Shown: one piece after another, positions 13,414 to 63,209 of the stretch
Position numbering within the stretch: the stretch's first letter is position 1
How the letters are laid out: every line of letters begins with the position of its first letter
DNA from: Patescibacteria group bacterium
GTDB lineage: Bacteria > Patescibacteriota > Microgenomatia > UBA10105 > UBA927
NCBI GenBank assembly: GCA_038062895.1
Contig: JBBTWJ010000005.1
Coordinates: forward strand, 3,715-67,714
Reading direction: 5' to 3'
DNA length: 64,000 nucleotides
Notes under the pieces: generated by a model
Told to the model about the DNA's origin: nothing
The model's database searches: none
The model's input: the letters and a program-made list of their open reading frames with translations, nothing else
Position numbers and translations under genes: made by a program

Positions 13414-13416
13414 TCA

Positions 13417-13489: not shown

Positions 13490-13516
13490 ATGATATTTCT
13501 TCCCCTGTCTACTCTA

Positions 13517-13795: not shown

Positions 13796-13803
13796 AGCCT
13801 TAT

Positions 13804-14828: not shown

Positions 14829-14890
14829 GTCCGAACACCGTCGATGGTGCGGAGCCAGTTGGCACTTCATACGCCAAATGATAAATTAGA

Positions 14891-15133: not shown

Positions 15134-15298
15134 ATAGAGCAGTAGTAGGTCCAAACACCGTCCATTGCGCCGAACAAATGCCTTTTGTTTCAAGATTTTT
15201 CCAACGACTCTATACCCAGAGAGGATTCGGGTTCATTAATGCAGTCTATAATTCCTGCTTCTTTTGCATTACTTTTTTTCTAATGAGATAATCAATAC

Positions 15299-47176: not shown

Positions 47177-48982
47177 CTACTTTCGCTCTACATTAAACAA
47201 TGGTCCGACAATTTGAATGTTGGCCGGAGCGCGAAGGTTAAAAAAGTCTTTAAACTCGCTTCCGTCAAACGTAGAGGTCCCGGCATTCCCACTCACGCTT
47301 ACCTGTGTCACCCGCCCTCCTCCCCAGTCGACCCCGCTTGCGCGAATTTCAGAAACGGAGGTAAACGGAGTAACCCCACGGGAAGAAAGTTCCTGACGAA
47401 CTTTTTCGCGGCTCCACGAATCGGTGCCGGCAGGATTAGGTTTATCCGGCTGATAGAGGTGCTCCTTCGTGCCTCCGTCTTGACGCGCGAGAAGGATGAC
47501 ATTGACGATGTCAGCCACTTCTTCTTCTTTGAGCCATGCGGATTTGGCATACTCACCACGAAACCCCTGGGCGGCATAAAAACACGGCGAATCACGGTCG
47601 TACCCTTTGGACAACAAATCGTCAACGTTCCCCACATCCCCTGTTGTATCCCGAAGTCTTTTCGTCCAAGGCCTATGTGCGCTTCCCCACACATCATCGT
47701 TTCTAAATGTATATCCGCCAGCTGTAGACGCATACCACCCGGTGACCACTTGCCCGTCGCGCGTCATGACCTCTCCTTCGGTCTCCCGCACTGCTTTTTC
47801 CCAATCGCCTCCCTTGTTGCCGCCTTTATAAACCTGACAGGCTTGAGTCGTACAAATTTCTTTGGCGCCGTTGCCGGTATACGAGAGAGCATAGGAGCGA
47901 GCCGAGACAACTTGCGCTTTGAGCGCCGCCATGGGCCAGTCGCCGGGCATCTCATAAATACCAAGCATATACTCATCCAAAGCCATTTCGCCATAGCCCT
48001 GTACTTTAATCCGCATATTTTTATCCTTTTTCTCAAAACTAATACCGTCAAAGTATGCACGCAAAATATCCTGATAGGACTGACCTGCTTTTGCCCGGCC
48101 ATACGCTCCATACTGGCTCAATCCCACGCGGTGTGGGATGCCGAAGGTAAAAAACGCCCACGCCGGACGGAAACCGGGATCAAGCTTCCGGTCATCCGTA
48201 CAATACAGTGGTCCGGCCCCGAGACTGGTCGGCAAGCCCAAGCCTGAAAGCTTTTGCGCGAGAAAGGATTGTTGCTTAACCGTAAGACTCCCGATAATGC
48301 TCGTAAGCTTCCCCTGATACGCGCTTGCCTCGCCCACGAGCTTCCTCACAGATACAGCTCGCTTATCGGTTTCTTCTTTCAGATAGGAAAGCGAGGCTGC
48401 CTCCACTTCCAGTGTTTTTTTCCTATTTTCTAAATCTTTGACAGAGATGGCTGTCTGGGTTATGGCTTTTTTGTCTTCGTCCAGTGCCGCCATCTGATAA
48501 GCAAGGGACCGGAGGACCACCCCAATATTACTGCTCCCTAAAAACGTCACGAGTGGGTTATTGCTCTGTACGCGGATATAGAGCTGTCGGGCGCGCCGGG
48601 ATGCAAGCTCCAAAAGGCCTCCTATTTCTTTTTCTCCGGCGGCAATAGCTGCGACTTTCTTTGCTAAATCCGCTTCAAGCAGTTTAATCCTGCTTTGAAA
48701 TGCCGCGATATCCGACTCCATCTTACGAAGAGCGTCCACATGAGGTTTTTTGGCTGTCTCCATCTGATTCCAGGCTTCCTGACATTTGTCTATTTTAGCC
48801 TTGCACTCGCCGGGATTTCCACAGGTAGGATCGCACGATTGCGCAAGCACAATCGAATTATCCAATAATCCAATTATCCAATAAACCAATAATCCAATAA
48901 TCAAACCCTTCAAAACGGTTTTCATTTGTTGATGTATTCTACCATGCCCTGATCTTTCCTTTTCTTTCTCCCTTTGGTACAC
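47177..48982 (-). CDS. SpoIID/LytB-domain protein with N-terminal coiled coil
   Basis: C-terminal half has AALKAQVVSARSYAL...CTTQACQVYKG...TGWYASTAGGYT (SpoIID/LytB). N-terminal TM and coiled coil. The start may be the Met at 48925. Confidence 0.8.
   Translation of the reverse strand: MYQREKEKERSGHGRIHQQMKTVLKGLIIGLLVYWIIGLLDNSIVLAQSCDPTCGNPGECKAKIDKCQEAWNQMETAKKPHVDALRKMESDIAAFQSRIKLLEADLAKKVAAIAAGEKEIGGLLELASRRARQLYIRVQSNNPLVTFLGSSNIGVVLRSLAYQMAALDEDKKAITQTAISVKDLENRKKTLEVEAASLSYLKEETDKRAVSVRKLVGEASAYQGKLTSIIGSLTVKQQSFLAQKLSGLGLPTSLGAGPLYCTDDRKLDPGFRPAWAFFTFGIPHRVGLSQYGAYGRAKAGQSYQDILRAYFDGISFEKKDKNMRIKVQGYGEMALDEYMLGIYEMPGDWPMAALKAQVVSARSYALSYTGNGAKEICTTQACQVYKGGNKGGDWEKAVRETEGEVMTRDGQVVTGWYASTAGGYTFRNDDVWGSAHRPWTKRLRDTTGDVGNVDDLLSKGYDRDSPCFYAAQGFRGEYAKSAWLKEEEVADIVNVILLARQDGGTKEHLYQPDKPNPAGTDSWSREKVRQELSSRGVTPFTSVSEIRASGVDWGGGRVTQVSVSGNAGTSTFDGSEFKDFFNLRAPANIQIVGPLFNVERK
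48836..48905. repeat. 8-bp tandem repeat (~6 units, [at]atccaat) within the signal/TM-coding region of the SpoIID-like gene
   Basis: ttatccaataatccaattatccaataaaccaataatccaataatcaaac, encoding GLIIGLLVYWIIGLLDN. Confidence 0.7.
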
Positions 48983-48992: not shown

Positions 48993-49373
48993 ATGCGGAG
49001 ACTATTTTGGATCATTCTGGCAATCTCTGTGTTTGTGTCTACGGGAACCGCGTATGCCGCGGATCCGTTCTGTCCCGGCAATAAACAGGGGATAAACACT
49101 GCGATCGGCTGCATTAACGCCGACGGCACCGGGGGTATCGTAAAAGAAATATTCCGATTGGGAACGGGTATTGCCGGAGGCATCGCGTTTCTTCTCATTC
49201 TTTTCGGTGGGTTTCAGATCATGACCAGCACCGGCAATCCCGAAAAGCTCAACGAGGGTAAAGAACTTATCGCCTCGGCCATCACCGGACTCCTCATGAT
49301 TCTTTTTTCCGTATTTCTCCTCAAGTTTATCGGTGTAGACTTACTCTGTATTCCCGGTTTCGGTTCGTGCTAA
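48993..49373 (+). CDS. Pilin-like small membrane protein (TrbC/VirB2-like, CPR 'T4SS pilin' type), paralog 1
   Basis: Signal peptide, then two hydrophobic helices flanking GGFQIMTSTGNPEKLNEGKELI. Confidence 0.7.
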   Translation: MRRLFWIILAISVFVSTGTAYAADPFCPGNKQGINTAIGCINADGTGGIVKEIFRLGTGIAGGIAFLLILFGGFQIMTSTGNPEKLNEGKELIASAITGLLMILFSVFLLKFIGVDLLCIPGFGSC

Positions 49374-49379
49374 ATCACT

Positions 49380-49721
49380 ATGGAATCCGTATTTGCTCAA
49401 AAACTTGAAATACCAGGCAATGGCCCAACTAAAGAACTTATCGAGGGGCCAACGGGGTTAACTATGAACTCCATCGGAGATATTATCAATAAAGCAATCC
49501 CCTACATCTTCTCGTTTGCCGGACTCGCTCTTCTTCTCATGCTCATCATGGCGGGATTTGACCTCCTCACAAGCGCCGGGGACGCAAAAAAACTGGAAAT
49601 GGGCAAGCAGCGCTTGACCTATGCGGTTGTCGGCATCATCCTGATCATCGTGGCCTATTGGCTGGTACAGATAGCCGGCATCATCTTCGGGGTTGCAGAG
49701 ATACAATCAGTGTTTAAATGA
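49380..49721 (+). CDS. Pilin-like small membrane protein, paralog 2
   Basis: AGFDLLTSAGDAKKLEMGKQRLTYAVVGIILIIVAYWLVQI motif. Confidence 0.7.
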   Translation: MESVFAQKLEIPGNGPTKELIEGPTGLTMNSIGDIINKAIPYIFSFAGLALLLMLIMAGFDLLTSAGDAKKLEMGKQRLTYAVVGIILIIVAYWLVQIAGIIFGVAEIQSVFK

Positions 49722-49789: not shown

Positions 49790-50503
49790 TCATTTTCCAA
49801 ACCGTCGTTTTCGTTTTTGAAACTCTTCAATCGCCTCATCCAGTTTTTCCGGTGTAAATTCCGGCATAAACCACGTCGGAAAATACAGCTCGCTATACTC
49901 CGACTGCCACGGGAGAAATCCACTTAACCGCTGTTCTCCGCCGGTGCGGATGATAAGCTCGGGATCAGGAATACCATGCGTGTCTAAATACTGATGAAAA
50001 TCTTGTTCGGTCAACTTTAAACTTTTAACTTTAAACTTTAAACTTTCGCGCCATCTGTTGATGGCGCGTAGTATCTCATCTCTCCCACCGTAGTTGAGCG
50101 CAAAGACCGCCGTGATGGTCGTATTATTTTTCGTTTGGTGAGCGACGTCACTCAAGGATTTCTGGATATCAGCCGGAAACTTAGCCAGATCACCGATTGC
50201 GCGGACGCGGACGCCTTTCTCATGAAGACGGGCCCATCGGTTCTTGATCACATGACGGAATATCGTCATGATTCCGCGCACCTCTGGCGCTGCGCGGTTC
50301 CAATTCTCTGTAGAAAATGCCCAAAACGTCATATATTTGACTCCCCGCTTTGCGGCGTGTTCGATGAGGGGCTCAAGCACATCATTGGCCACCCGCCTGT
50401 GTCCTTCGAGAATCGGAAGTCCCCGTTCCTTTGCCCACCGGCGGTTGCCATCCATGATGACGGCGATATGGGTTGGAATATTCGTTGTATTTCCCATAAT
50501 CAT
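49790..50503 (-). CDS. uppS: Isoprenyl transferase (undecaprenyl diphosphate synthase, UppS)
   Basis: HIAVIMDGNRRWA...FSTENW...ELIIRTGGEQRLSGFLPWQ. Contains an in-frame heptamer repeat. Confidence 0.9.
   Translation of the reverse strand: MIMGNTTNIPTHIAVIMDGNRRWAKERGLPILEGHRRVANDVLEPLIEHAAKRGVKYMTFWAFSTENWNRAAPEVRGIMTIFRHVIKNRWARLHEKGVRVRAIGDLAKFPADIQKSLSDVAHQTKNNTTITAVFALNYGGRDEILRAINRWRESLKFKVKSLKLTEQDFHQYLDTHGIPDPELIIRTGGEQRLSGFLPWQSEYSELYFPTWFMPEFTPEKLDEAIEEFQKRKRRFGK
50013..50047. repeat. Heptanucleotide tandem repeat (aacttt[atc] x5) inside uppS CDS
   Basis: aactttaaacttttaactttaaactttaaactttc, translated as ..ESLKFKVKSLKLTE.. Confidence 0.85.
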
Positions 50504-50560: not shown

Positions 50561-51538
50561 TTAAAATAAATGATCTTTAATAAGATGCGCTCCGCGGGAG
50601 GGTTTGTTGACAATGACATCACGAATTTCGTCAATATCAGTTAATTTTGCTTTCAATGCGTCAACAGTGTTTGAATGACAAATAAGGTGAACATCCTGTC
50701 CGGTGTTAATAGTAAAATAGACTTCTATCCCTTCATCTCGCCACTTCTTAATAAGTCTTATAACCTGGAGCGTCCCCGGTGTCCAATAGATGAGTGGTGG
50801 TCTTGAAGTGAGCATCACCGCGTGCATCTCAAGAGCCTCTGCCTCAATAAGTTCTCCAAGGAGAGAAAAACGTTTTTCTGCCAACAGTTTTTTTGCCTGT
50901 ATTAATTTTTTTTTCATCCCTGCCAGACGCACCGGAAAAAAGGGGCTTGATGCAACGCGCGCCATTCCTTGAGTCGTGGGTACGGATTTTTTTCCTTCAT
51001 TAACGACTACCACGACATCAACGATATCCCACCAATCCGGCGGATAAAGGGAAACGCCGTAGGATGTATCACTCGTGTTGCCGTCGATCCACTCCACAAA
51101 CCCATCCGGAATAGATCTGCACGCAGAGCCGGAGCCCTGACGCGCGAGTATCGACAATTCTTTTTCATCAAGTTCTAACCCGGCTGCAGCAACTGCGGCA
51201 ACTGTTAGCGCCGCAAATCCAGAAGCAGAAGAGGATAATCCCGTACCAGAAGGAAAATTATTGACGGTGACGACTTTGGCGTAATCGTCCATACGCGCAA
51301 CCTTGCGAATCCGATCTAAATGCGTAATCGCTCTACTTCCATCAATTGCTTCCTGGATACCGTTAATCTCTATAACGTCCTCCTTATGCATTGGGCTGAA
51401 TTCCACGGTCGTTGTTGTCATCAAACCAGAAAGGTTCATTGATAAACTACCGTTTTCCGGCAAGCGTAATGCGTCATTTTTCTTTCCCCAATACTTGATA
51501 AATGCAATATTTGAGGGAGCAACAGCTGTAGCTTTCAT
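50561..51538 (-). CDS. mvaD: Diphosphomevalonate decarboxylase
   Basis: PSNIAFIKYWGK...GTGLSSSASGFAAL...SGSACRS. Start at the Met MKATAV, with a 4-nt ATGA overlap with the upstream gene. Confidence 0.9.
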   Translation of the reverse strand: MKATAVAPSNIAFIKYWGKKNDALRLPENGSLSMNLSGLMTTTTVEFSPMHKEDVIEINGIQEAIDGSRAITHLDRIRKVARMDDYAKVVTVNNFPSGTGLSSSASGFAALTVAAVAAAGLELDEKELSILARQGSGSACRSIPDGFVEWIDGNTSDTSYGVSLYPPDWWDIVDVVVVVNEGKKSVPTTQGMARVASSPFFPVRLAGMKKKLIQAKKLLAEKRFSLLGELIEAEALEMHAVMLTSRPPLIYWTPGTLQVIRLIKKWRDEGIEVYFTINTGQDVHLICHSNTVDALKAKLTDIDEIRDVIVNKPSRGAHLIKDHLF

Positions 51539-52983
51539 GATAAAATTCCTGCTTTTTTGAGCGAAACTTCTGCACATCTCGTAAGCACAATTTCCTTCGT
51601 TGCCACTTTAAATGGTATCTCCCGGGGAGAAAAAAATTCCACACGATCTACTTCCTCATGATTTATCCGAAACGGGCCATTGGATACCCCTCTATATAGC
51701 GCTGCCATTTCCGACTCCTGGTTATCTTGTACGACAAACCTGGAAAGCGGGGTAACTGGCATATCGACTCCCAGTTCTTCCTGAAGCTCGCGGTGAAGCG
51801 TCTCTTCGTACTCCTGACCTTTCCGCACATGGCCCGCGCAGGATATACCCCAAAGTCCCGCGCCCGTATCTTTAGAACTGCTCCTTTTTTGGAGAAGCAC
51901 ATTCCCTTTTTTATCAAAAATAACGGCTCCTACCGTGCGATGGATAAGTGACTTGTCATGATGGCAGTCATAGCGGCTGCGAAACCCAAGCACTCTGTCA
52001 TCTTTATCGACGACGATAAATTCTTCTTTCTGGTCATCGGTTGTCTCGATGCGGACACCTTGAGCGTTTGGGTGGACATCAATCGCTTCACCACCCGCAT
52101 CCGCTATCGCTTTTTGTATGGCTTCTCTCTTATCGCTCGGCCCAAGGGCGATCATACAATCTCCGCCCCCTGCACCGGAGAGCTTGGCGCCCCAAGCTCC
52201 TGCCTTTTTTGCCGCACTAATCATCGCTTCTAACTTTTCGCTGCTCACTCCCAAATCCCGCAGGTACTCATGATTAAAATCCATGAGTCTCCCCACCCGT
52301 TCCCAATCCCCTTCCAACATCCGCATTTTCGCTTCCTCAACCAATTTGGTTATCGCCTGAAAAATCCGCTCCACTTTCTCCGGATTCTTTTCCTTCTTTT
52401 CGGCCACTTGTTTTATAAGCATCGTCGTATCCGCTTTCACTCCCGTGTATCCAACAATGAGTGGCATTTCTGATACAGTTTGATCGTTTGATTCCCGGTA
52501 TTGAGCGTGGATTTCTTCAATAACTTTGCCGCCGGCAATGAAATAGAGGGTTCCCCCATACACGGCCGCTGCCACATCAAATCCGCTCCCCATCCCCTGC
52601 ACGGCTAACACCGTTTTATATGAAAGGTCAAAAAGCTCGCGCGACGTCACTTCTTTTTTGAAAAGCAAGGCAAGCGCCTTTACTACCCCCACCGTTACCG
52701 AGGCAGATGATCCGAAACCATATTTGCCCGAAAAGTTACTTTGTGTTTTGATCCGGAACCCAACCGATGGAATACCCCACCCTTTTTGTGCCTGCCGGAC
52801 CGCTTCATCCACAAAGCGGGTATCACCCGCTTGGGGCGCATCTACCACGACCTTACTTTCCTCAATTTTTTCCACTCCAACCGTAAGCCGCTCATCAATC
52901 GCGGTAACCAAAGAAGGATAGCCGTACACGACGGCGTGTTCACCCATTACCATTAATTTCCCTGGCGCGGAAATTAAAACCAT
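51535..52983 (-). CDS. Fusion protein: GHMP kinase (mevalonate/phosphomevalonate kinase-like) + isopentenyl-diphosphate isomerase type 1 (Nudix)
   Basis: N-terminus APGKLMVMGEHAVVYG..GFGSSAS (GHMP). The C-terminal ~160 aa has HRTVGAVIFDKKGNVLLQKRSSSKDTGAGLWGISCAGH...ELQEELGV, the IDI-1 pattern. Confidence 0.85.
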   Translation of the reverse strand: MVLISAPGKLMVMGEHAVVYGYPSLVTAIDERLTVGVEKIEESKVVVDAPQAGDTRFVDEAVRQAQKGWGIPSVGFRIKTQSNFSGKYGFGSSASVTVGVVKALALLFKKEVTSRELFDLSYKTVLAVQGMGSGFDVAAAVYGGTLYFIAGGKVIEEIHAQYRESNDQTVSEMPLIVGYTGVKADTTMLIKQVAEKKEKNPEKVERIFQAITKLVEEAKMRMLEGDWERVGRLMDFNHEYLRDLGVSSEKLEAMISAAKKAGAWGAKLSGAGGGDCMIALGPSDKREAIQKAIADAGGEAIDVHPNAQGVRIETTDDQKEEFIVVDKDDRVLGFRSRYDCHHDKSLIHRTVGAVIFDKKGNVLLQKRSSSKDTGAGLWGISCAGHVRKGQEYEETLHRELQEELGVDMPVTPLSRFVVQDNQESEMAALYRGVSNGPFRINHEEVDRVEFFSPREIPFKVATKEIVLTRCAEVSLKKAGILS

Positions 52984-54116: not shown

Positions 54117-54431
54117 CTAACACGGTTTCACTTTTATCCCATACGGAATCACGCCCTCATTGTTTGGCTTAATGGTGCGGCGGACAACAGTAATAACCTT
54201 CATTCCCATAAGCTTTTCCTTCCCAGCCTGTCCGCCGGCTGGCGGATCTACAAGTTGTGCGGTTATTCTTTCTCCCCCACTAAGCTCGACAAGGACCACG
54301 GGATACGGAGCCTGATCGGAAAAATCAGCCGGAGGAACACGCACCATGGTCCACGAGATTATTTTCCCGATTTTCCCGAGCATTTTACCAACGTTCTTTT
54401 GATTTCTCCAAAGCTTGACCGGACTAAGCAT
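54117..54431 (-). CDS. DUF35 OB-fold/Zn-ribbon protein (thiolase/HMG-CoA synthase scaffold, archaeal type)
   Basis: 104 aa (...WTMVRVPPADFSDQAPYPVVLVELSGGERITAQLVD...) sitting between the thiolase and kinase genes. Confidence 0.7.
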   Translation of the reverse strand: MLSPVKLWRNQKNVGKMLGKIGKIISWTMVRVPPADFSDQAPYPVVLVELSGGERITAQLVDPPAGGQAGKEKLMGMKVITVVRRTIKPNNEGVIPYGIKVKPC

Positions 54432-54508
54432 AATTGTTACTTGGTTAGTTGGTTACTTAGTTATTAGTAAAAAATTTTTCTAAGTAACGAAGTAACTAGC
54501 GTTGCTAA
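54432..54508. repeat. Intergenic inverted-repeat spacer
   Basis: ttacttggttagttggttacttagttattag...ctaagtaacgaagtaactagcgttgctaactaac. Confidence 0.7.
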
Positions 54509-55663
54509 CTAACTTTTAAGTATATGAGCCACCGCGGTCGCTCCGCTTCCTCCGACGTTATGGGCAAGTCCCACGCGCGCGCCTTTCACTTGTCTGGCTC
54601 CTGCCACCCCCCGAAGTTGCGTCACCAATTCAACAACCTGCTTGACGCCCGTCGCGCCAATCGGATGACCACAGCCTTTCAGTCCCCCAGACGGATTGAC
54701 GACTAATTTTTTCGCTTTCCCCAGCGTCACTTCTCCCCGTGATATCGCTCGAGCTGCCATTCCCTTGCGATAAAATCCTATATCTTCCAGAGCTAAAATT
54801 TCTGCAATCGTAAAACAATCATGCACCTCGGCGATATCAATATCGCGAGGCCCGACGCCGGCAATCGCATAAGCGCGACGCGCAGCTTCTTGAGAAGCCG
54901 CAAGCTCGGTCAAGCTCTCTCTTTGGGCAAGTCCCAATGTGTCTGTTGCCACTGCGCTTGCGACAATTTCAATCTCCTTTTCCCTTTTTCCGTTTACCTT
55001 TTTCCTTGAAAGTATGAGTGCTGCTGCTCCGTCTGAAATCGGTGAGCAATCTAATAACTTCAGGGGGTCGGCGACAGCGTGGCTTCTTAGAACCTGCTCG
55101 ATGGTGAGAAGACTTCGAAATTGTGCGTTAGGGTTTAAACTCGCATGAAAATGATTTTTTACGGCAACTGCCGCCAGATCTTCTTGGGTCGTCCCATACT
55201 CCTGCATATGAATACGGGCAAGAATGGCGTAGAGCCCCGGAAACGTACAACCAGATGAACGCTCTTGAGCAGTCCCCGCGCCCATGAGCGCTGTCGCCAC
55301 ATCTTCTGGCTTGTGATCCGTCATCTTTTCGACCCCAAGTACGGCAACCGTCTCATACTGACCGGAGGCGATGGCGTTAAATGCGTTGTGAATAGCCAGG
55401 CCTCCCGACGCGCACGCGCCTTCAACCTTAAAAGCAGCAGCGTGAGTAAATCCCAGTTCCTCTGCAAAAAATGCCCCCAAATGCTCCTGTCCACCCAACA
55501 TGCCGGAGAGCATATTGCCTACGAATAACGCCTGAATGTCCCGCGGCTTCATAGCAGCATCTTTCAGCGCGCCGTCCATGGCCTCATGGGCGAGCGTCCT
55601 GGGAGAGACGCTCCAAAGCTCACCGAATTTAGTTGTAGAAGCACCGATGATAGATACATTCAT
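54509..55663 (-). CDS. Acetyl-CoA C-acetyltransferase (archaeal-type thiolase)
   Basis: MNVSIIGASTTKFGEL...ACASGGLAI.., a thiolase fold without the bacterial PhaA-type N-terminus. Confidence 0.9.
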   Translation of the reverse strand: MNVSIIGASTTKFGELWSVSPRTLAHEAMDGALKDAAMKPRDIQALFVGNMLSGMLGGQEHLGAFFAEELGFTHAAAFKVEGACASGGLAIHNAFNAIASGQYETVAVLGVEKMTDHKPEDVATALMGAGTAQERSSGCTFPGLYAILARIHMQEYGTTQEDLAAVAVKNHFHASLNPNAQFRSLLTIEQVLRSHAVADPLKLLDCSPISDGAAALILSRKKVNGKREKEIEIVASAVATDTLGLAQRESLTELAASQEAARRAYAIAGVGPRDIDIAEVHDCFTIAEILALEDIGFYRKGMAARAISRGEVTLGKAKKLVVNPSGGLKGCGHPIGATGVKQVVELVTQLRGVAGARQVKGARVGLAHNVGGSGATAVAHILKS

Positions 55664-55758
55664 AGTTGCTTGGTTAGTTGGTTACTTGGTTACTTAGAAA
55701 GAACTAAGTTGCTAAGTAACAGGTGTTGCTAACTAACAATCTAGCGAATTACCATTCG
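55664..55758. repeat. Intergenic inverted-repeat spacer
   Basis: ttgcttggttagttggttacttggttacttag...ctaagttgctaagtaacaggtgttgctaactaac, followed by a second palindrome ctagcgaattaccattcgctag. Confidence 0.7.
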
Positions 55759-56862
55759 CTAGATTTTGTGTGTCTGTTTCAAATATTGCACGTAATCAAT
55801 GTACGTTTTTTTCGCTATTTGCTGCTGCACTAAACTTTGACTTTTGACTTTTGACTTTTGACTTTTGACGAGCGCTTCTGTCGTCTCCCACACAAACCCG
55901 TCGCTGCCGGCTCCCGATCCGTAGGACACCATAAAAATCTTCTCTCCGGGTTTGGCGATATCCAATACCGCGGCAAGCCCCATCATGGTAGAAGCTGAAT
56001 AGGGATTTCCAATGGTGTCCACGACAAGTGAGGGCAGTATCTGATCAGGCGTAAACCCTAAGCGCTTCGCTGCGTCCCGGGGAAATCTCCCGTTGGGCAT
56101 ATGAAAAACACAATAGTCAATATCAGAAGGTTTACACTGAACCTTTTCAAAAAGGCGACGTGCGGCCCCTATAACATGCGCAAAATATGCCGGCTCTCCG
56201 GTGAACCTCCCTGCATGAGATGGATAGGCCACACCATCACGTCGCCAAAAGTCCGGCGTGTCCGAAGAATAGGAAGTGTAGGCAAGAAGTTTTGCAACGA
56301 TAGGTTTAGTTGTTCCTTGGGGATCAATTTTCTTGCGGCCGCTTTTGTTTTGATCCTCATCTCCTTTTCCCATTAAAAACGCGGCTCCGGCGGCGGCGGA
56401 CGTGTATTCCAACACGTCGTGGGGTTTGCTTTGGGCCGTATCAGCACCCACGGCCATACCATAGCGCATATGACCGGATCCCACGAGCCCTGCGATTGCC
56501 TGCATCCCCGCGGTCCCCGCTTTACAGGCAAACTCAAAATCTGCCGCCAGATAATTATTTCCTACGCCAAGAAGTTCTCCGACAATCGTGGACGTTGGAT
56601 TAACCGCATACGGATGACTTTCTGATCCCACAAATAGAGCTTCTATAGACTGGGGACTTAGCCCCTCTACTCCGCTCAAGGCGCTTCGGGCGGCTTCAAG
56701 GGCTATCGTCACTGCGTCCTCGTCTGGAGCCTGTACGGATTTTTCCGTAACGAGAAGCGATGAAGTGACGTCCTGTCCGTCCTTTTTCCACGCAGCAGCG
56801 ATATCGCTTAGACGGATGCGGTACTGCGGAATATAGGTGCCGTATGAAACAATTCCTACCAT
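55759..56862 (-). CDS. mvaS: Hydroxymethylglutaryl-CoA synthase (archaeal type)
   Basis: MVGIVSYGTYIPQYRI...AGTAGMQA (catalytic Cys region). A heptamer repeat lies near the C-terminus. Confidence 0.9.
   Translation of the reverse strand: MVGIVSYGTYIPQYRIRLSDIAAAWKKDGQDVTSSLLVTEKSVQAPDEDAVTIALEAARSALSGVEGLSPQSIEALFVGSESHPYAVNPTSTIVGELLGVGNNYLAADFEFACKAGTAGMQAIAGLVGSGHMRYGMAVGADTAQSKPHDVLEYTSAAAGAAFLMGKGDEDQNKSGRKKIDPQGTTKPIVAKLLAYTSYSSDTPDFWRRDGVAYPSHAGRFTGEPAYFAHVIGAARRLFEKVQCKPSDIDYCVFHMPNGRFPRDAAKRLGFTPDQILPSLVVDTIGNPYSASTMMGLAAVLDIAKPGEKIFMVSYGSGAGSDGFVWETTEALVKSQKSKVKSQSLVQQQIAKKTYIDYVQYLKQTHKI
55834..55868. repeat. Heptanucleotide tandem repeat ([ct]tttgac x5) inside HMG-CoA synthase CDS
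   Basis: ctttgacttttgacttttgacttttgacttttgac, translated as KSQKSKVKSQS. Confidence 0.85.
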
Positions 56863-56983: not shown

Positions 56984-58147
56984 TTAGTGCTTAGAGCTTC
57001 CGCGCGCAAGACGTTGATGCGCGCGGGCTAAGGTTCCCTCCGACAACGACGCAAGAAGTGAAATTTCACCAGCGAGTACGGCGGCTGCAATAATCTCCGC
57101 AAGCCGTTGAGCGTTTTTCCCATTATCCCCACCGGCAACGCCAAGAATGTTCAAGGCTTCTTTTTGTGTCCCAAGCCCTGTCCCGCCACCAACCGTCCCG
57201 ACCATAAGATCCGGGAGACATACATTGATATATACATCGTGACCATCAACTACTTCCATCGTCGTTATCCCCACGCTACACTCTCCCACGTGTCCGAGGT
57301 CTTGCCCTGTCGCCAAAAACATCGCCGCGATAACGTTGGCGTATTGGGCGTTAAATCCCATGGATCCGCTTATCGCGCTTCCGATCATACATTTAGCGAG
57401 CCATACTTCATAAACCTTTTGTGCCGTTGTTTTAAGAACATTTTTAAGAACACTCGCAGGAATAGTCACTTCTGCCCACACCTTGATCCCGCGATTTTCT
57501 ATGAAGTTAAGCCACGCGGATTTTTTGTCTATGTCAAAATTCCCGGCAAGTGAAAGGCATTTCACCCCGGTTTCCTCTTCGATATATGAGGCAAGAGCGT
57601 CGCTTGCTATTGTTGCCATGTTCATGCCCATAGCATCCTCGGTGTCAAACGTAAATCGCACAAACCGATATCTCCCAACCCCACGGGTCAACAACTTCTT
57701 TAACGTTATATGACGTGATGTTTTGGCGGCTACCTCCTGTAGATCATTCAAGTGCTCATTCAAAAATTTATATAAACGGTCGCTCTGTGCAAGATCTTTC
57801 ACTTTAAATACCGGACCCCGTGTCGCTCCCACCCGATGACTATCAACCGTCGACCCACCGCTTTCGGTGATCGCTTTACACCCCCGGCTCACGGAAGCGA
57901 CGAGAGCGCCTTCGGTCGTGGCGAGGGGAATATACCCACTGAAAACTTTAAACTTTAAACTTTTAACTTTGAGGGGGCCGGCGATACCTAGTGGGACTTG
58001 TGCCGCTCCGACCATGTTTTCGCAGTTTTTCGTTGATGCAACGGACTGGTCCAGAGTAAAGCTGCCGATGTTGATTAAATCAACCTTCAACTGTTTCTCC
58101 AGGGCGCTTCTGCGGTCCGTAACTGTTTTGTAATCACGAAGATTCAT
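56984..58147 (-). CDS. mvaA: HMG-CoA reductase
   Basis: ENMVGAAQVPLGIAGPL...ATTEGALVAS...DAMGMNM...GTVGGGT. Start at the Met MNLRDYK (ATGA overlap with the upstream Yip1 gene). Confidence 0.9.
   Translation of the reverse strand: MNLRDYKTVTDRRSALEKQLKVDLINIGSFTLDQSVASTKNCENMVGAAQVPLGIAGPLKVKSLKFKVFSGYIPLATTEGALVASVSRGCKAITESGGSTVDSHRVGATRGPVFKVKDLAQSDRLYKFLNEHLNDLQEVAAKTSRHITLKKLLTRGVGRYRFVRFTFDTEDAMGMNMATIASDALASYIEEETGVKCLSLAGNFDIDKKSAWLNFIENRGIKVWAEVTIPASVLKNVLKTTAQKVYEVWLAKCMIGSAISGSMGFNAQYANVIAAMFLATGQDLGHVGECSVGITTMEVVDGHDVYINVCLPDLMVGTVGGGTGLGTQKEALNILGVAGGDNGKNAQRLAEIIAAAVLAGEISLLASLSEGTLARAHQRLARGSSKH
57943..57970. repeat. Heptanucleotide tandem repeat (aacttt[atg] x4) inside HMG-CoA reductase CDS
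   Basis: aactttaaactttaaacttttaactttg, translated as LKVKSLKFKV between GPL and ATTEG. Confidence 0.85.
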
Positions 58148-58923
58148 AAAAACGGTACTCGAAATATTCCCAACCGGTACATCCCCCAACTCCAAACTCC
58201 CATAACCGGACCGACTACACCAACAACTGCCAAAATCCGCCAAAGATCAAGCTTGAGTCCGAACCGGAGCGTAAGATACCCAAGCGTCAGCTTCCAAAAA
58301 AAGAGTGTCGTGCTCACGACCAGAAATAACACGCTAAACCCCGTGCCCGCAATACTCGCGGTCCTTGGTGGGGGCAGCAATATATAGAGAAGCGAGGTCA
58401 TAAAAAACCAACAAACCGTGGGAAGCATCGTATATCCCCAACCAACCGCAATTCCTTTCATTGTCCCCTTCCCGCCGAACTGCTTCCCCACAAGCCAAAC
58501 CACACAGACAACAAGCATATAGGTCACCAGTGCGGCGACGGCCAGCACGACCGCGTGCTTAGAGAGAAGAAAGGGTCGAAACGCTGCGACTTTGACCAGG
58601 CTTGCAAGAGAAAAGTAGACGATGGCCAACGCTGCGACATACACAAGCTCCCACGCGCCTCCCTTGCCTACAACCTTGCGATACGTTTCGTATGGACGGA
58701 CTACGAGACCAATGGTGGTACGACCAAATGCGATACCGGACATGATGAGCTGATCAAGCATAGTATGAAAAAGTAGTGGTATGAAGTTAGTCGAAGGATA
58801 AGGGCTAAAACCCGCGGTTAAAATCCTCTTTGGAGGAGAGTAACAAGAAGGGTGATGGTTGAACCGATCAGGAAGTACAGGATAAGCACACATGCCGCAG
58901 CCGACAAAACAAAATACGGCCAT
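58144..58923 (-). CDS. Yip1-family membrane protein
   Basis: 5 TM with a Yip1-like topology. The start may be the Met at 58761. Confidence 0.6.
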   Translation of the reverse strand: MAVFCFVGCGMCAYPVLPDRFNHHPSCYSPPKRILTAGFSPYPSTNFIPLLFHTMLDQLIMSGIAFGRTTIGLVVRPYETYRKVVGKGGAWELVYVAALAIVYFSLASLVKVAAFRPFLLSKHAVVLAVAALVTYMLVVCVVWLVGKQFGGKGTMKGIAVGWGYTMLPTVCWFFMTSLLYILLPPPRTASIAGTGFSVLFLVVSTTLFFWKLTLGYLTLRFGLKLDLWRILAVVGVVGPVMGVWSWGMYRLGIFRVPFL

Positions 58924-59048
58924 GGCATAACTTTCAGCCTGCGGATAAACGATTTATAGACAGGCGTGAACGGTCCCAACGTCTGTGGGGGGAGGTCTAC
59001 AACCTGCTCCCAACGGGTAAGAAATTTTTTGTAGGTGACGTCTTTCAT
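58818..59048 (-). CDS. Small membrane protein (possible anti-sigma factor)
   Basis: 76 aa with a single TM, immediately downstream of the ECF sigma factor. Confidence 0.4.
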   Translation of the reverse strand: MKDVTYKKFLTRWEQVVDLPPQTLGPFTPVYKSFIRRLKVMPWPYFVLSAAACVLILYFLIGSTITLLVTLLQRGF

Positions 59049-59126
59049 GATTTTGACGTCATTCTGGAAGCCGAAGGCTGATAGAATCTCCAGGGGATCC
59101 TATCGCTTCGCTCCAGGATGACATTT

Positions 59127-59666
59127 TTAAATAGAAAGGAATGCTTCTACGAACGCTTTTCTCGCTCGAAACAGTTGCGACTCTGCGCTTTTAAAGCTTA
59201 TGGTAAGTTTTTCTGCAATTTCTGAAACGCTAAATCCATCTGCGTATTTGAGAACGAGAACACTCTTATACATCGGCAGAAGCCGACCCAAGGCTCTATA
59301 AATTTTCTCCCGAAGCAGGCTCGCATCAAGCTCTTCCTCCGGTCCTAAAAGCGGAGCTACAAATGATTCAAGTTGCGGCACCGCAGAAAACACGACGTGA
59401 CGGATTTTCTTTCTCCTATACCAGTCAATCACCTTGTGGCTTGCGATCGCGTAAAGAAACGTCTTGAGCTTGGACGCTCCGGTAAAATCACGGATGGCCT
59501 CAAGAAACCCAAAAAGCGCATCTTGCAACACCTCTTCGGCATCATCGGGGTTGGCAATCTTCGCGCGGATAAAGAGACGAAGCTTCGGGGTATACATCCG
59601 GTAAAATACCGAAAGTGCCTGGCGATCGTGCGCGAGGATTTGAGTAATGAGTTCCTGGTCATTCAT
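59127..59666 (-). CDS. ECF-type RNA polymerase sigma factor (sigma-70 family)
   Basis: Region 2 (FYRMYTPKLRLFIRAKI...EEVLQDALFGFLEA) and a region-4 HTH (YADGFSVSEIAEKLTISFKSAESQLFRARKAF). Confidence 0.85.
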   Translation of the reverse strand: MNDQELITQILAHDRQALSVFYRMYTPKLRLFIRAKIANPDDAEEVLQDALFGFLEAIRDFTGASKLKTFLYAIASHKVIDWYRRKKIRHVVFSAVPQLESFVAPLLGPEEELDASLLREKIYRALGRLLPMYKSVLVLKYADGFSVSEIAEKLTISFKSAESQLFRARKAFVEAFLSI

Positions 59667-59697: not shown

Positions 59698-60648
59698 TCA
59701 TGCTTGGCGGTTGAGCGCAAAACTTGCAAAGTCAGTAAGAAGCGCTCCCATGCCGACAGACGCATGAATCGCTTGGGTCGCCTGAGCCGTCTGCTTTCCA
59801 AGCTTCTTGGCCTGTGTGCGGAAAGCGTCCTCACCAACTTCACCATCAAGGAAATCATCGCGCAGTTGATATGCCTCTCCCACCGCCAGGCCGTACGGTA
59901 CAAACGATTCGAGCGTTTTCTCATCCGACCCGGCGATGCTCGCTCCGATCTGAAGAGGCCGGACGACGCTGTACCAAGCAGTTTTATAACGGTTAATCGT
60001 TGCCCTGTCGGCGCTGGGCAATCCAGCGGAGGCCAACACATCCAGGCTCTGACCCAAAATCACCTCTTGTTTCATTTTCTGATAATTTACCCACACGCTC
60101 GACCAATTCCGGGAATCCTTTGGATTCCCGGAATTAACGGCCCGGTTCATCAGTTCATCCGCCCACGCCAATGCGAGGTCGCCGGCGAGGATAGCCATGC
60201 TCTCGCCGAAACGCGAACTCCCCATCCGATTCCGGGAATCCAAAGGATTCCCGGAATCTAGCGCAACCTGCTTAAACTTTTCATGAACAGTGGGACTGCC
60301 GCGGCGCATCGCATCTTCGTCAATAATATCGTCATGGATGAGAGCAAACGACTGAAATAGTTCAATTCCCATCATGGCAGAGAGCACGTTGTCATCCCCG
60401 ACCCGATCGGGGATCCAGGTATTGCGCTGGATTCCCGCGTGCGCGGGAATGACAGACTGGTGCCCCAGCCATACCAGAAACGCCCGGGTCCGCTTGCCGC
60501 CGCGGGAGGTGAGATCGGCTATTTGGTCAACGAGTTGTATGGTCTGCGGATGGATGTTTTTCGCTTCACTGTGTTTGGTCGTAAAAAAGTGTTGAAGTTC
60601 ATGATCGACGTTCTTCTTGACATCATGAAGGGCTGTAGTGAGATCCAT
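59698..60648 (-). CDS. Polyprenyl diphosphate synthase (FPP/GGPP synthase family) carrying three translated palindromic insertions
   Basis: FARM motif LIHDDIIDEDAMRRG and SARM motif GEAYQLRDDFLD. Start at the Met MDLTTALHD; the longer ORF extension is encoded by an intergenic repeat copy. Confidence 0.9.
   Translation of the reverse strand: MDLTTALHDVKKNVDHELQHFFTTKHSEAKNIHPQTIQLVDQIADLTSRGGKRTRAFLVWLGHQSVIPAHAGIQRNTWIPDRVGDDNVLSAMMGIELFQSFALIHDDIIDEDAMRRGSPTVHEKFKQVALDSGNPLDSRNRMGSSRFGESMAILAGDLALAWADELMNRAVNSGNPKDSRNWSSVWVNYQKMKQEVILGQSLDVLASAGLPSADRATINRYKTAWYSVVRPLQIGASIAGSDEKTLESFVPYGLAVGEAYQLRDDFLDGEVGEDAFRTQAKKLGKQTAQATQAIHASVGMGALLTDFASFALNRQA
60105..60142. repeat. Palindromic element family B (14-bp arms) inside polyprenyl synthase CDS, translated NSGNPKDSRNW
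   Basis: aattccgggaatcc-ttt-ggattcccggaatt. Confidence 0.85.
60229..60262. repeat. Palindromic element family B, second copy, inside polyprenyl synthase CDS, translated DSGNPLDSRNR
   Basis: gattccgggaatcc-aaa-ggattcccggaatc. Confidence 0.85.
60427..60454. repeat. Palindromic element family A inside polyprenyl synthase CDS, translated SVIPAHAGIQ
   Basis: ctggattcccgcgtgcgcgggaatgaca. Confidence 0.85.
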
Positions 60649-60674
60649 GGGAGAAGTATACCAAATTTCATAAG

Positions 60675-60709
60675 GCCACCCCTTGCAAACGCCAAGGGGT
60701 GGCCTTGAA
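60675..60709. repeat. Perfect hairpin (copy 2), identical to 42772..42806
   Basis: aaggccaccccttgcaaacgccaaggggtggcctt. Confidence 0.75.
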
Positions 60710-60724
60710 AAACACATTTGAACT

Positions 60725-60752
60725 CTGGATTCCCGCCGTCGCGGGAATGACA
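60725..60752. repeat. Palindromic element family A, intergenic copy
   Basis: ctggattcccgccgtcgcgggaatgaca. Confidence 0.8.
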
Positions 60753-60804
60753 ATTCTTCGCATATTGTTGACAGTCGCCTTCAGCTTTCCGTACACTTAT
60801 ACTC

Positions 60805-61113
60805 ATGGAGCGTATCTTTGCCGTCGACCTTCAAAATACATCACCAACGTTTAGCGCGTATCCCACGTTCGGGGCATTAGTCACCATCATCGTGCGCAAC
60901 TCATTCGTGCTGGCTGGCATCATAAGCTTCCTGCTTTTGGTTTTCGGAGGATTTAGCGTTATAATGGCAGCAGGATCTGGCGACACGAAGGAGCTTGAGA
61001 AAGGTCAAAAGACGATCACGTATGCGATCCTGGGACTTATTCTCGTCGTCACGTCGTACTGGATCGTCCAGATTATCGAAAAAGTGTCGGGTGTCAAACT
61101 TATCACACCATAA
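60805..61113 (+). CDS. Pilin-like small membrane protein, paralog 3
   Basis: FGGFSVIMAAGSGDTKELEKGQKTITYAILGLILVVTSYWIVQII. Confidence 0.7.
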   Translation: MERIFAVDLQNTSPTFSAYPTFGALVTIIVRNSFVLAGIISFLLLVFGGFSVIMAAGSGDTKELEKGQKTITYAILGLILVVTSYWIVQIIEKVSGVKLITP

Positions 61114-61114
61114 T

Positions 61115-61492
61115 ATGTTCATGTTTACTTCTAAAATTTTTGCTCAAGGAAGCGCGGCAAACGACGTCGTCGGTAGTGTCACAAACCCCCTGGTGGCTTA
61201 CGGCAGCGTCACACAAGGGCTCATCCCGTTTTTTACCAATCTCATCCGCCTCATGTTTGTCGGAGCGGGTATATACGCCTTCATAAATTTCATTATTGCC
61301 GGATACCAGTATATGAGCGCGGGCGGCGATACCAAGGCGCTTGCTTCTGCCTGGGCGCGCATTTGGCAATCTCTGTTGGGGCTCGTCATCATCGTAGGTT
61401 CGTTTGCCCTGGCGGCACTTTTTGGATATCTTATATTCGGCAACGCGGGCTTTATTCTTAATCCGGTCATTTATGGACCGGGAGACAAATAA
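61115..61492 (+). CDS. Pilin-like small membrane protein, paralog 4
   Basis: Start at ATG 61115 just after the previous stop. IAGYQYMSAGGDTKALASAWARIWQSLLGLVIIVGSF. Confidence 0.65.
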   Translation: MFMFTSKIFAQGSAANDVVGSVTNPLVAYGSVTQGLIPFFTNLIRLMFVGAGIYAFINFIIAGYQYMSAGGDTKALASAWARIWQSLLGLVIIVGSFALAALFGYLIFGNAGFILNPVIYGPGDK

Positions 61493-61494
61493 CT

Positions 61495-61884
61495 ATGAAG
61501 GTGTTTGCTTCAGAACCACTTGGAACAATCGGGGGCGAGGGACTGGGACCCTGGGGCTTAATCGGAAAAAACCTTAGCGCTGATAACGGTGTTGCCGGAT
61601 TAAGAGCAGTTACCGCAACAATTTCCGGGGTCATCGGCGTCATGACGGTGGCTGCCGGCATCTGGTTTATCTTCCAAGTCCTCATCGGAGGCTTTTACTG
61701 GATCACATCAGCAGGCGACAAAACGAAACTCAATGAAGCACGCGACCGCATACAAAATGCGGCAATCGGACTCGTCGTCGTCGTCGCAGGATGGTCGATC
61801 CTCGCGCTCGCCGGACAATTCTTGGGGTACGATATTGTCATCAGCAATCCCGGAGAAGTAATAAAACAATTAAAAATACAATAA
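61495..61884 (+). CDS. Pilin-like small membrane protein, paralog 5
   Basis: IGGFYWITSAGDKTKLNEARDRIQNAAIGLVVVVAGWSILAL. Confidence 0.7.
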   Translation: MKVFASEPLGTIGGEGLGPWGLIGKNLSADNGVAGLRAVTATISGVIGVMTVAAGIWFIFQVLIGGFYWITSAGDKTKLNEARDRIQNAAIGLVVVVAGWSILALAGQFLGYDIVISNPGEVIKQLKIQ

Positions 61885-61893
61885 CAATTTACT

Positions 61894-61921
61894 CTGGATT
61901 CCCGCCTGCGCGGGAATGACA
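61894..61921. repeat. Palindromic element family A, copy overlapping the start region of the next pilin gene
   Basis: ctggattcccgcctgcgcgggaatgaca. Confidence 0.8.
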
Positions 61922-62266
61922 CACATGAATCGAACACTAGCTCAGCTTATCAATCCCGTCATCCCGGAGATCATCGGCAAGGGACCAGTCGAAAAAGGAA
62001 GTGTCGCCATCGGCATACTCCTCACACAAGTATTTAGCGCGCTTTTTTTATTCGCATTCATCACCGCATTTTTATATCTCATCACCGGAGCCATGCATTG
62101 GATCACAAGCGGTGGAGACAAAACCAAGCTTGAGGAAGCGAGAAACCGCATCATCCACTCAATCGTCGGCATCATCGTGGTGGCCTCATCATGGGCGATT
62201 ATCACGCTTATTGGTCAATTTATCGGATTGGATCTTGAAAATCTTCCGATCCCGACGATCAAATAG
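61916..62266 (+). CDS. Pilin-like small membrane protein, paralog 6
   Basis: TGAMHWITSGGDKTKLEEARNRIIHSIVGIIVVASSWAIITLI. The first ATG lies inside the repeat; the true start may be the ATG at 61925. Confidence 0.7.
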   Translation: MTHMNRTLAQLINPVIPEIIGKGPVEKGSVAIGILLTQVFSALFLFAFITAFLYLITGAMHWITSGGDKTKLEEARNRIIHSIVGIIVVASSWAIITLIGQFIGLDLENLPIPTIK

Positions 62267-62354
62267 ACCTAACCGTCTATTGACAAACAGCGTCCATTTG
62301 CAGAACAATAAGAAAGAGGATATAATCGATACTAGCTGATAAAGGAGGATCCAT

Positions 62355-62699
62355 ATGTTTGAACAAATTTTTGCCGCAGGAGAACCAACAATAACAATTT
62401 CCCGGGACAGAGCACAGTTTTTCAAAATCCAAAATTTGGGCGAGCTCATCAGTGCCGCTGTGGGCGCACTCTTGGTCATTGCCGCTCTCCTTGCGTTTTT
62501 CTTTCTTATCCTGGGTGGCATCCAGTGGATCACCTCCGGTGGAGATAAAACCGGCATGGAAGCAGCCCGCAATAAAATTACTCACGCCGTCGTGGGTCTC
62601 GTGATCGTCGGAGCCGCTTGGGCCATCATGATCCTCGTCCAGAACTTCCTGGGCGTCACGATCATCGGCGACACACTTACGCTTCCCAAGCCATTCTAA
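62355..62699 (+). CDS. Pilin-like small membrane protein, paralog 7
   Basis: Strong SD aaaggagg 6 nt upstream. LGGIQWITSGGDKTGMEAARNKITHAVVGLVIVGAAWAIMIL. Confidence 0.75.
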   Translation: MFEQIFAAGEPTITISRDRAQFFKIQNLGELISAAVGALLVIAALLAFFFLILGGIQWITSGGDKTGMEAARNKITHAVVGLVIVGAAWAIMILVQNFLGVTIIGDTLTLPKPF

Positions 62700-62787
62700 C
62701 AACTACGTGATGGGTGAATGAGGGATGAGTCAATACCATAACACTTCTGGACTTTGTTCTATAAACCCGCGATAATACAAGTATCGT

Positions 62788-63177: not shown

Positions 63178-63209
63178 AAATAGAAACAAAGAGTGCCTAT
63201 ACTTATCGT

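Follow-up and report, generated by a model that had tools for sequence, protein, structure and literature searches.

A mevalonate-operon GHMP kinase naturally fused to an IDI-like Nudix domain without the isomerase catalytic residues in Gottesmanbacteria-type Patescibacteria

Type-1 isopentenyl-diphosphate isomerases (IDI) need a Cys, a Tyr and a Trp for the carbocation proton shuttle, with Tyr104 and Trp161 acting in proton relay and carbocation stabilisation (residue numbers such as Cys67 and Tyr104 are those of E. coli IDI). In plants, isopentenyl phosphate kinase (IPK) and AtNudx1/3 run a cycle between isopentenyl phosphate (IP) and isopentenyl diphosphate (IPP), and human NUDT15 and NUDT18 hydrolyse prenyl diphosphates. 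Arguments on what the ancestral isoprenoid pathway was like draw on the mevalonate operons of the candidate phyla radiation (CPR), or Patescibacteria, with their 'IDI-I' taken at face value. In the consulted passages of Hoshino & Gaucher (2018; PMC6107057), CPR IDI-I is described as not monophyletic and IPK as syntenic with 'IDI-I'. Here we describe a 64,000-nucleotide stretch of contig JBBTWJ010000005.1 from a Patescibacteria group bacterium (the window), in which a GHMP kinase (K2) of a mevalonate operon is fused to an IDI-like Nudix domain. As an overall explanation we lean, tentatively, towards a natural fusion whose Nudix part is a paralogue of IDI (lineage B) and probably favours hydrolysis of a prenyl diphosphate over isomerisation.

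The fused open reading frame (ORF) lies on the minus strand at 51535-52983 and runs uninterrupted through 482 codons, with zero internal stops and zero ambiguous bases. Pfam matches to GHMP_kinases_N (residues 58-144, 2.6e-15), GHMP_kinases_C (residues 223-296, 2.3e-16) and NUDIX (residues 348-459, 5.1e-20; 72.3 bits against a cutoff of 21.1) are all far above their cutoffs. An earlier sequence-only reading of this DNA had proposed a single 482-aa kinase-Nudix protein with a second GHMP kinase immediately upstream, and both claims are borne out: the second kinase (K1) is encoded 76 nt upstream of the fused ORF. Every motif which that reading quoted is also present, those of the kinase at residues 7-21 (PGKLMVMGEHAVVYG), 89-95 (GFGSSAS) and 267-276 (KLSGAGGGDC) and that of the Nudix part, HRTVGAVIF..LLQKRSSSKDTGAGLWGISCAGH..EELGV, at residues 348-405.

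The same three-Pfam architecture was found in more than 100 clusters (90% identity clustering) at 49-83% identity in a search of 5.8 billion proteins, the clusters being drawn from NCBI, JGI, ENA and Logan assemblies. The top matches are metagenome-assembled genomes (MAGs) of Candidatus Gottesmanbacteria and other Microgenomates. A scan of GTDB species genomes, annotated with the window's own operon proteins, returned 66 loci, and the order HMGR-HMGS-AACT-DUF35-K1-K2-MDD-UPPS was kept almost everywhere among them. With the window and the metagenomic operons L077 and L078 counted in, K2 bears the Nudix domain in 30 loci, including closed chromosomes of ~1 Mb, and in 37 loci it has neither the domain nor a Nudix gene within 8 kb. 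The record titles of many GTDB representative MAGs with this clearly Patescibacterial operon read 'uncultured Gammaproteobacteria bacterium', which seems to be a default or wrong label.

In other Microgenomates (L072, L075 and L076, Levybacteria), the order is K1-K2-Nudix-MDD with a stand-alone Nudix gene of 164-168 aa, and in L072 and L076 the K2 stop overlaps the Nudix start by 4 nt. In the DNA of L076, ...GVRIEK* overlaps MKTTDNQDELFIVVD, whereas in the window ...GVRIE-TTDDQKEEFIVVD is read in one frame, which is the pattern expected from a small deletion across the stop/start overlap. The junction ...GVRIE-TTDDQKEEF... consists of the conserved C-terminus of unfused K2 followed by the conserved N-terminus of the stand-alone Nudix proteins, and its sequence is conserved among the fused homologues. 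The precursor is thus the conserved arrangement K1-K2-Nudix-MDD-UPPS with the 4-nt overlap, from which one clade joined K2 to the Nudix gene through a small deletion spanning the overlap; some descendants later lost the Nudix segment by a clean deletion. One such locus, L027, has a K2 3' end with 93.5% DNA identity to the window K2 up to GVRIET; there the gene reads ...GVRIETL*, followed by ~30 nt and the MDD start, so that the Nudix segment of ~500 nt is cleanly gone and a single Nudix N-terminal residue is left. In the K2 tree, fused and unfused proteins are interleaved. The recurrence, the L027 locus and the interleaved tree together show that the fusion is real and that the domain was lost again in close relatives. 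This gene fusion of Gottesmanbacteria-type Patescibacteria is natural and lineage-restricted, and it is a concrete case of a fusion gained and then lost between near-identical genomes.

We aligned 116 fused homologues with an E. coli IDI sequence verified over residues 15-136 by the PDB alignment. The metal ligands H25, H32, H69 and E114 and the catalytic Glu116 are kept in 114-116 of the 116 (H341, H348, H385, E423 and E425 in the query), and R51, K55 and E87 are invariant. In contrast, the Cys67 column holds Ala (85), Gly (15), Ser (13) or Thr (3) and never Cys; the query has Ala383, and its Cys382, present in 29 of the 116 homologues, stands one column before. At Tyr104 the column is V/T/S/I, and at Trp161 it varies (A/C/G/W). 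Position 83, an Arg in true IDI, is a Glu that presumably corresponds to the MutT general base E53; it completes an invariant R-E-x-x-E-E Nudix box, which reads G384-x5-Q390-x7-R398-E399-L-Q-E402-E403-L-G-V in the query, the R, E, E and E being invariant. In addition, the loop before the ExE motif is ~6 residues shorter than in IDI. The domain scores 83.4 and 60.7 on the IDI models PRK03759 and TIGR02150, below their cutoffs of 127 and 105.8, and 74 on the YfcD model. In the AlphaFold2 model of the Nudix domain (predicted local distance difference test, pLDDT, 96.7), the top Foldseek matches are all Nudix proteins, with template-modelling (TM) scores of 0.86-0.88 and a root-mean-square deviation of 2.0 Å to E. 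coli YfcD and TM ~0.81 to human and E. coli IDI. YfcD is likewise the closest solved relative, with IDI second, for the single sequence and for the profile (102 bits).

The lack of Cys67, Tyr104 and Trp161, the Glu at position 83, the scores below both IDI cutoffs and the co-occurrence of this paralogue with a canonical IDI lead us to conclude that the Nudix part of the fusion falls outside canonical type-1 IDI. The sequence-only reading had named it a type-1 IPP isomerase with a Cys/Glu active-site context; the name falls, and of the context Glu116 survives but Cys67 does not, Cys382 being one column off. That reading had also considered that the domain might align better to a generic Nudix hydrolase, which is partly so: YfcD is the best match and Cys67 is absent, but the IDI Glu and metal site are kept. 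The invariant C340 was considered as a relocated catalytic Cys and rejected, as the same Cys-His pair occurs in human IDI1/2 (whose catalytic Cys we take to be Cys86/87) and in some canonical CPR IDIs, and many members of the broader family are without it.

An exhaustive HMMER search with the Nudix domain yielded 7,411 relatives of diverse architectures, 1,611 of them below 1e-10. Many of the 150 best of these combine an IDI metal site and E83/E86/E87 with the absence of Cys67; among them the canonical signature in full (C66-C67, R83, Y104, W161) is confined to one domain each of several tandem two-Nudix proteins and one stand-alone protein. More distant relatives are fused to HAD phosphatases, KsgA, GNAT or Ppx/GppA. 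Relatives of ~410-450 aa, expected to be IPK-Nudix fusions, are actually HAD-, KsgA- and GNAT-Nudix proteins. The lineage-B signature, R21-C24-H25-H32...non-Cys67...H69...E83-E86-E87...E114-E116, is found in all 116 fused homologues and in more than 60 stand-alone ones. Lineage A comprises the 120 closest homologues of the Gottesmanbacteria IDI, which carry R83, Y104, E114, E116 and W161 in 120/120 and C67 in 112/120; the Ser67 proteins, 8 of the 120, have Ser for Cys67 and keep Tyr104, Trp161 and the full metal site.

Both lineages occur side by side. The 120 lineage-A homologues include P0388 and P0344, from operons L077 and L078, each of which holds a canonical IDI gene together with a K2::Nudix fusion. 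Tandem two-Nudix proteins are encoded upstream of the kinases in the mevalonate operons L067, L071 and L073, as canonical IDI::lineage B in L067 and L073 and, in L071, with lineage B first and a Ser67 IDI-lineage domain after it. The canonical half of the tandem proteins has CC-H, R83, Y104 and W161 (a Ser67 variant in P0142 and P0125) and the other half is lineage B, and JGI and NCBI label the whole proteins 'IDI'. Ser67 IDI-lineage genes also lie beside operons with lineage B. Furthermore, locus L074 (Gottesmanbacteria GCA_016194575.1) keeps the frame polyprenyl synthase-sigma-Yip1...UPPS-pilins-SpoIID, with the mevalonate genes replaced at 3624-9212 by canonical IDI(177)-Nudix(228, odd)-IPK-lineage-B Nudix(173)-UPPS, as if the locus had been recast for isopentenyl-phosphate salvage. 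Because L074 keeps lineage B without mevalonate genes, the substrate of lineage B would be at or beyond the level of IP, IPP and dimethylallyl diphosphate (DMAPP) and not a mevalonate intermediate. Judged by these genomic contexts (L067 and L071-L078), the fused domain is a paralogue that coexists with a real IDI in related operons.

With the diphosphate binders of IDI (R21, R51 and K55) and a His3Glu2 metal site retained, the domain could accommodate a prenyl diphosphate of C5 or longer in a pocket like that of IDI. Most likely it would hydrolyse it, for example IPP/DMAPP to IP/dimethylallyl phosphate (DMAP) and Pi, as an accessory valve for flux or toxicity control tied to the kinase rather than as an isomerase. 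The absent Cys/Tyr/Trp proton shuttle and the retained Glu83 of a hydrolase-type Nudix box favour such hydrolase-type chemistry, which we regard as the leading candidate, if a tentative one; a Cys-independent isomerase seems doubtful. Fusions to HAD phosphatases and Ppx/GppA in the wider family and the IPK gene next to the lineage-B Nudix gene in L074 both speak for a hydrolase, and an accessory role would agree with the domain having been lost repeatedly.

Several points weigh against the hydrolase reading, the chief of them being that the IDI-specific metal ligands and Glu116 are strictly conserved, although a plain diphosphatase would not obviously need them and YfcD is without them. The first Glu of the Nudix box is a Gln in 83 of the 116 fused proteins and a Glu in 30. 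Canonical IDI was not found in the window or in 27 fusion-bearing genome loci, in operon or flanks, and none of seven fusion-bearing single-contig genomes of ~0.8-1.2 Mb is among the 120 closest canonical-IDI matches, an indirect comparison. Lineage B could be the sole IDI-like enzyme of those genomes, and if they are truly without canonical IDI, it must isomerise. JGI pipelines also name lineage-B proteins IDI, and a hydrolase within a biosynthetic operon is counter-intuitive. In L078 the canonical IDI gene lies between Yip1 and HMG-CoA reductase (HMGR), where the window leaves no room for one; a non-exhaustive ORF scan of the window (20 further large ORFs, with no FMN_dh or AA_kinase) found neither canonical IDI nor IPK.

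It is also possible, though we hold the view with reserve, that lineage B is an unrecognised, widespread IDI paralogue in Microgenomates and a core isoprenoid-operon gene with a reaction of its own, be it hydrolysis to the monophosphate or Cys-independent isomerisation. Such a paralogue would occur stand-alone, fused to a kinase or in tandem with a true IDI; hydrolysis would oppose IPK or the kinases, Cys-independent isomerisation would let some genomes dispense with canonical IDI, and the paralogue might be an evolutionary intermediate between Nudix hydrolases and IDI.

The diphosphomevalonate decarboxylase (MDD) encoded after the fusion passes its model TIGR01240 with 261 bits against a cutoff of 171.35 and scores 171.7 on NF040704 (MvaD), below 475; these are model scores, not residue-level specificity. 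Since the diphosphomevalonate model is passed, one of K1 and K2 must be a phosphomevalonate kinase (PMK). Pathway logic suggests that the two would be mevalonate kinase (MK)-like paralogues jointly supplying both phosphorylations before MDD, but the sequence signals conflict and do not decide which of them is the MK and which the PMK. For the claim of the sequence-only reading that the fused kinase is probably the PMK, the signals are mixed: K2 has residue states otherwise seen only in PMKs and is without the MK Glu, but it passes the MK cutoff, misses the PMK cutoffs and is closest to archaeal MK. Some mevalonate operons with an MDD homologue contain a single GHMP kinase, only K2 in L067 and L068 and only K1 in L069 and L070; their partner kinase is either elsewhere in the genome or a different route is used.

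The reading that K2 is the MK and K1 a diverged PMK, with the Nudix domain as an accessory or regulatory module such as an IPP/DMAPP sensor feeding back on the first kinase, appears unlikely, but it draws on the overall similarity of K2. Both kinases pass TIGR00549 (MK, cutoff 163.05), K2 with 207 bits and K1 with 176.6, and K2 scores 225.7 on PRK03926. On the PMK models TIGR01220 and NF040957, K2 reaches 103.6 and 96.8 (cutoffs 165.7 and 500) and K1 54 and 42, far below the cutoffs. The best PDB match of K2 is M. mazei MK, end to end with 138 bits and 30% identity, against 72 bits for Listeria Lin0012 and 34 bits for the S. pneumoniae PMK; in a check of these references Lin0012 was confirmed as a PMK and the S. 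pneumoniae sequence was identical to 3gon. The MK match of K1 is confined to its N-terminal half (78 bits). The AlphaFold model of K2 (pLDDT 88.9) gives Foldseek TM scores of 0.85-0.87 to archaeal MK (6mde) and 0.75-0.78 to PMKs. The C-terminal half and motif III of K1 are strongly diverged, its family profile scores relatively better on the Listeria PMK (the profiles give no clear MK/PMK split), and an operon with only K2 and MDD exists (L067). Public records, at NCBI and JGI, label K2 'mevalonate kinase', as they do K1. In opposition, an operon with only K1 and MDD exists too (L069), and the strict conservation of catalytic-type Nudix residues suits an enzyme better than a pure sensor. Moreover, the column of rat MK E193, which we take to be the Mg-ATP-binding Glu, holds Leu/Val in the K2 family and Glu in the three reference MKs and in K1.

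The model of the sequence-only reading, a bifunctional PMK-IDI in which K2 is the PMK and the Nudix domain a working IPP isomerase with a non-canonical base (e.g., Cys340 or the substrate diphosphate), is improbable in our view. It gains from the residue-level alignment of 62 K1 and 61 K2 sequences with two PMKs and three MKs, one of the latter entered by hand. There, K1 keeps the canonical MK catalytic block (IP.G..LGSS; E-K..H..PSGxDN) despite a degenerate motif III, and K2, in which K9, D136, GFGSS and GAGGGDC occur invariantly, has fixed states that it shares with the two reference PMKs alone: Phe118, GSGFD-V-A, VGYTG, SGAGGGDC and the Leu replacing the MK Glu. The PMK-type invariant positions are F118, G132, S269 and D275 (GGGDC). 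In this model's favour are also the complete IDI metal ligands, Glu116, the diphosphate binders and the IDI-like fold of the Nudix domain, with no other IDI-like gene in the window or in 27 related loci. However, K2 outscores K1 on the MK models, with both PMK models far below cutoff. At 12 columns that discriminate MK from PMK (two PMK and three MK references), K2 has four PMK and four MK states and K1 one and three, respectively. A bootstrapped neighbour-joining tree, with distances of ~2 substitutions per site, weakly favours K2 with MK and K1 with PMK (52%) over K2 with PMK (15%). Cys67, Tyr104 and Trp161 are absent though kept in the canonical IDI of the same organisms, and that IDI shares an operon or a protein with the lineage-B domain. 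Human IDI has the 'CH' Cys too, so that it gives no sign of a relocated base, and the Nudix domain is deleted in the close relative L027. The proposed coupling of the last phosphorylation to isomerisation fails as well, because the two steps are not consecutive and the decarboxylase lies between them.

A sequencing or assembly frameshift that merged two neighbouring genes, which a single indel error could mimic where the unfused genes overlap by 4 nt, is ruled out for practical purposes by the same in-frame architecture and conserved junction across independent clusters, assemblies and closed chromosomes.

The fusion sits in a long co-directional isoprenoid locus that extends from a trans-polyprenyl synthase through undecaprenyl-diphosphate synthase (UPPS), with the operon order HMGR-HMGS-thiolase-DUF35-K1-K2::Nudix-MDD-UPPS (Table 1). 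The MDD ATG overlaps the fusion TGA as ATGA at 51535-51538. The window K1 is identical to NCBI MEK7543614.1, 'mevalonate kinase', from a Patescibacteria MAG.

Table 1. Features of the fused gene, its operon and related loci (window positions unless a locus is named).
Feature	Position	Strand	Remarks
K2::Nudix fused ORF	51535..52983	(-)	482 aa + stop, TGA 51535-51537; more than 100 clusters with same architecture
K2 GHMP-kinase domain, residues 1-313	52045..52983	(-)	Pfam/NCBIfam, PDB match, Foldseek, signature alignment
K2 motif I	52921-52965	(-)	
K2 motif II	52699-52719	(-)	
K2 catalytic-Asp region GMGSGFDVAAA	52564-52596	(-)	
K2 motif III KLSGAGGGDCMIA	52147-52185	(-)	
Fusion junction TTDDQKE, residues 314-320	52024..52044	(-)	Matches N-terminus of stand-alone Nudix proteins (MKTTDNQDE...)
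Lineage-B IDI-like Nudix domain, residues 321-482	51538..52023	(-)	
Nudix-domain segment RYDCHHDKSLIHR	51937-51975	(-)	Includes C340 at 51964-51966
Nudix-domain segment ISCAGHV	51826-51846	(-)	Ala383 = Cys67 column, 51835-51837
Nudix box GHVRKGQEYEETLHRELQEELGV	51766-51834	(-)	
E423-S-E425	within 51703-51723	(-)	
Undecaprenyl-diphosphate synthase (UPPS, cis-prenyltransferase)	49790..50503	(-)	Profile matches
Diphosphomevalonate decarboxylase (MDD)	50561..51538	(-)	TIGR01240 261 bits; likely start MKATAV
K1, stand-alone GHMP kinase, 323 aa	53060..54031	(-)	Canonical MK catalytic signature, divergent motif III
DUF35/OB-fold protein	54117-54431	(-)	
Archaeal-type thiolase	54509-55663	(-)	
Archaeal-type HMG-CoA synthase	55759-56862	(-)	
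Class-I HMG-CoA reductase	56984-58243	(-)	Start uncertain
Yip1-domain protein	58144-58923	(-)	
Small ORF	58818-59048	(-)	
ECF sigma factor	59127-59666	(-)	
Trans-polyprenyl diphosphate synthase	59698-60753	(-)	
Tandem two-Nudix proteins, ~350 aa	L067 8001-9047 (P0130); L071 8001-9068 (P0142); L073 82-1137 (P0127)		Also P0121, P0123, P0125
Ser67 IDI-lineage genes	L072 3-530; L075 9808-10341; L076 1821-2372	(-)	Beside operons with lineage B

In archaea, thiolase, a DUF35 protein and HMG-CoA synthase form a channelling complex, and in this bacterium the trio, with thiolase and HMG-CoA synthase of archaeal type, is encoded together at 54117-56862(-). The extracytoplasmic function (ECF) sigma factor, the small ORF and the Yip1 membrane protein (58144-59666, -) are kept between the polyprenyl synthase and HMGR across Gottesmanbacteria and may serve to regulate this operon specifically. 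Small T4SS_pilin-family genes form arrays on both sides of the locus, at 48993-49721(+) and 60805-63825(+), with a SpoIID-domain protein (47177-48982) next after the pilin array, and these flanks recur in most related loci (L067, L071, L072, L074, L077 and L078). Another Nudix protein in the window (10102-10950(-), 283 aa; weak Pfam NUDIX match of 31.5 bits) is, by phmmer, unrelated to the IDI lineage and to lineage B. Window positions 12001-16000, with a G+C content of ~0.385 against 0.45-0.52 elsewhere and an aminoglycoside-nucleotidyltransferase-like ORF at 13974-14825, may be an acquired segment.

Two distinct IDI-fold proteins are encoded in these operons, and the kinase-fused one is without the isomerase catalytic residues, so that annotations as 'mevalonate kinase' or 'IDI' and the metabolic reconstructions built on them are incomplete; database copies of the fusion are labelled 'mevalonate kinase', 'NUDIX domain-containing protein' or 'IDI'. 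A conserved enzyme with uncharacterised chemistry is placed at the IPP node, a more interesting lead than the fusion itself. If it is a prenyl-diphosphate hydrolase, it would be a built-in flux or toxicity valve that could serve pathway engineering; if it is a Cys-independent isomerase, the IDI-1 mechanism would have to be revised; and if lineage B is a widespread paralogue with a distinct reaction, it would add a new enzyme to the bacterial mevalonate/isoprenoid pathway.

Our literature search found no description of a kinase-Nudix fusion or of two IDI-fold lineages set apart, in line with the sequence-only reading, which knew of no such fusion; searches on Gottesmanbacteria with mevalonate and on YfcD function found nothing relevant. 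For the CPR mevalonate cluster, the searched passages of Hoshino & Gaucher (2018; PMC6107057) do not describe the fusion, state that fused partners were trimmed, and do not separate canonical IDI from the Cys67-less paralogue. Compared with archaeal MK (M. mazei, 6mde/4hac, TIGR00549), K2 shares the PGK...GEHAVVYG motif, GxGSS and the catalytic Asp besides the end-to-end match, the fold and the score above the cutoff, but has Leu/Val for the Mg-binding Glu, GGGDC for GGGGC and VGYTG for IG[DN]TG, a second MK-like kinase encoded beside it and a C-terminal Nudix domain. With the GHMP PMKs (3gon; Lin0012, 3k17; TIGR01220), it shares SGAGGGDC, GSxxD-[VLI]-A, VG[YW]TG, Phe118 and the missing MK Glu, and pathway logic calls for a PMK in this operon; its scores, in contrast, are far below the cutoffs, its motif I is the MK-type GEH and not GEY, and overall it is nearer MK.

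As for the Nudix domain, type-1 IDI (E. coli Idi, human IDI1; TIGR02150/PRK03759) has the same Nudix-derived fold (TM ~0.81), and the domain keeps its five metal ligands, Glu87, the diphosphate binders R51 and K55 and a location in a mevalonate operon, but lacks Cys67, Tyr104 and a conserved Trp161, has Glu instead of Arg83 and a shorter loop, and falls below the cutoffs. With YfcD (2fkb) it shares an intact R-E-x-x-E-E box and the KD..PG and GPF motifs, but YfcD is without H25, H69, E114 and E116, that is, the IDI metal site, and we know of no link between YfcD and isoprenoid genes. Another Nudix hydrolase, D. radiodurans DR0079, is presumably CDP/CTP-preferring. AtNudx1/3 and NUDT15/NUDT18 belong to the MutT-like Nudix proteins and, unlike lineage B, have no IDI metal site. 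They are nevertheless a precedent for Nudix hydrolysis of IPP/DMAPP or longer prenyl diphosphates opposite IPK, and such activity, together with the IPK gene beside lineage B in L074, lends some plausibility to a hydrolase.

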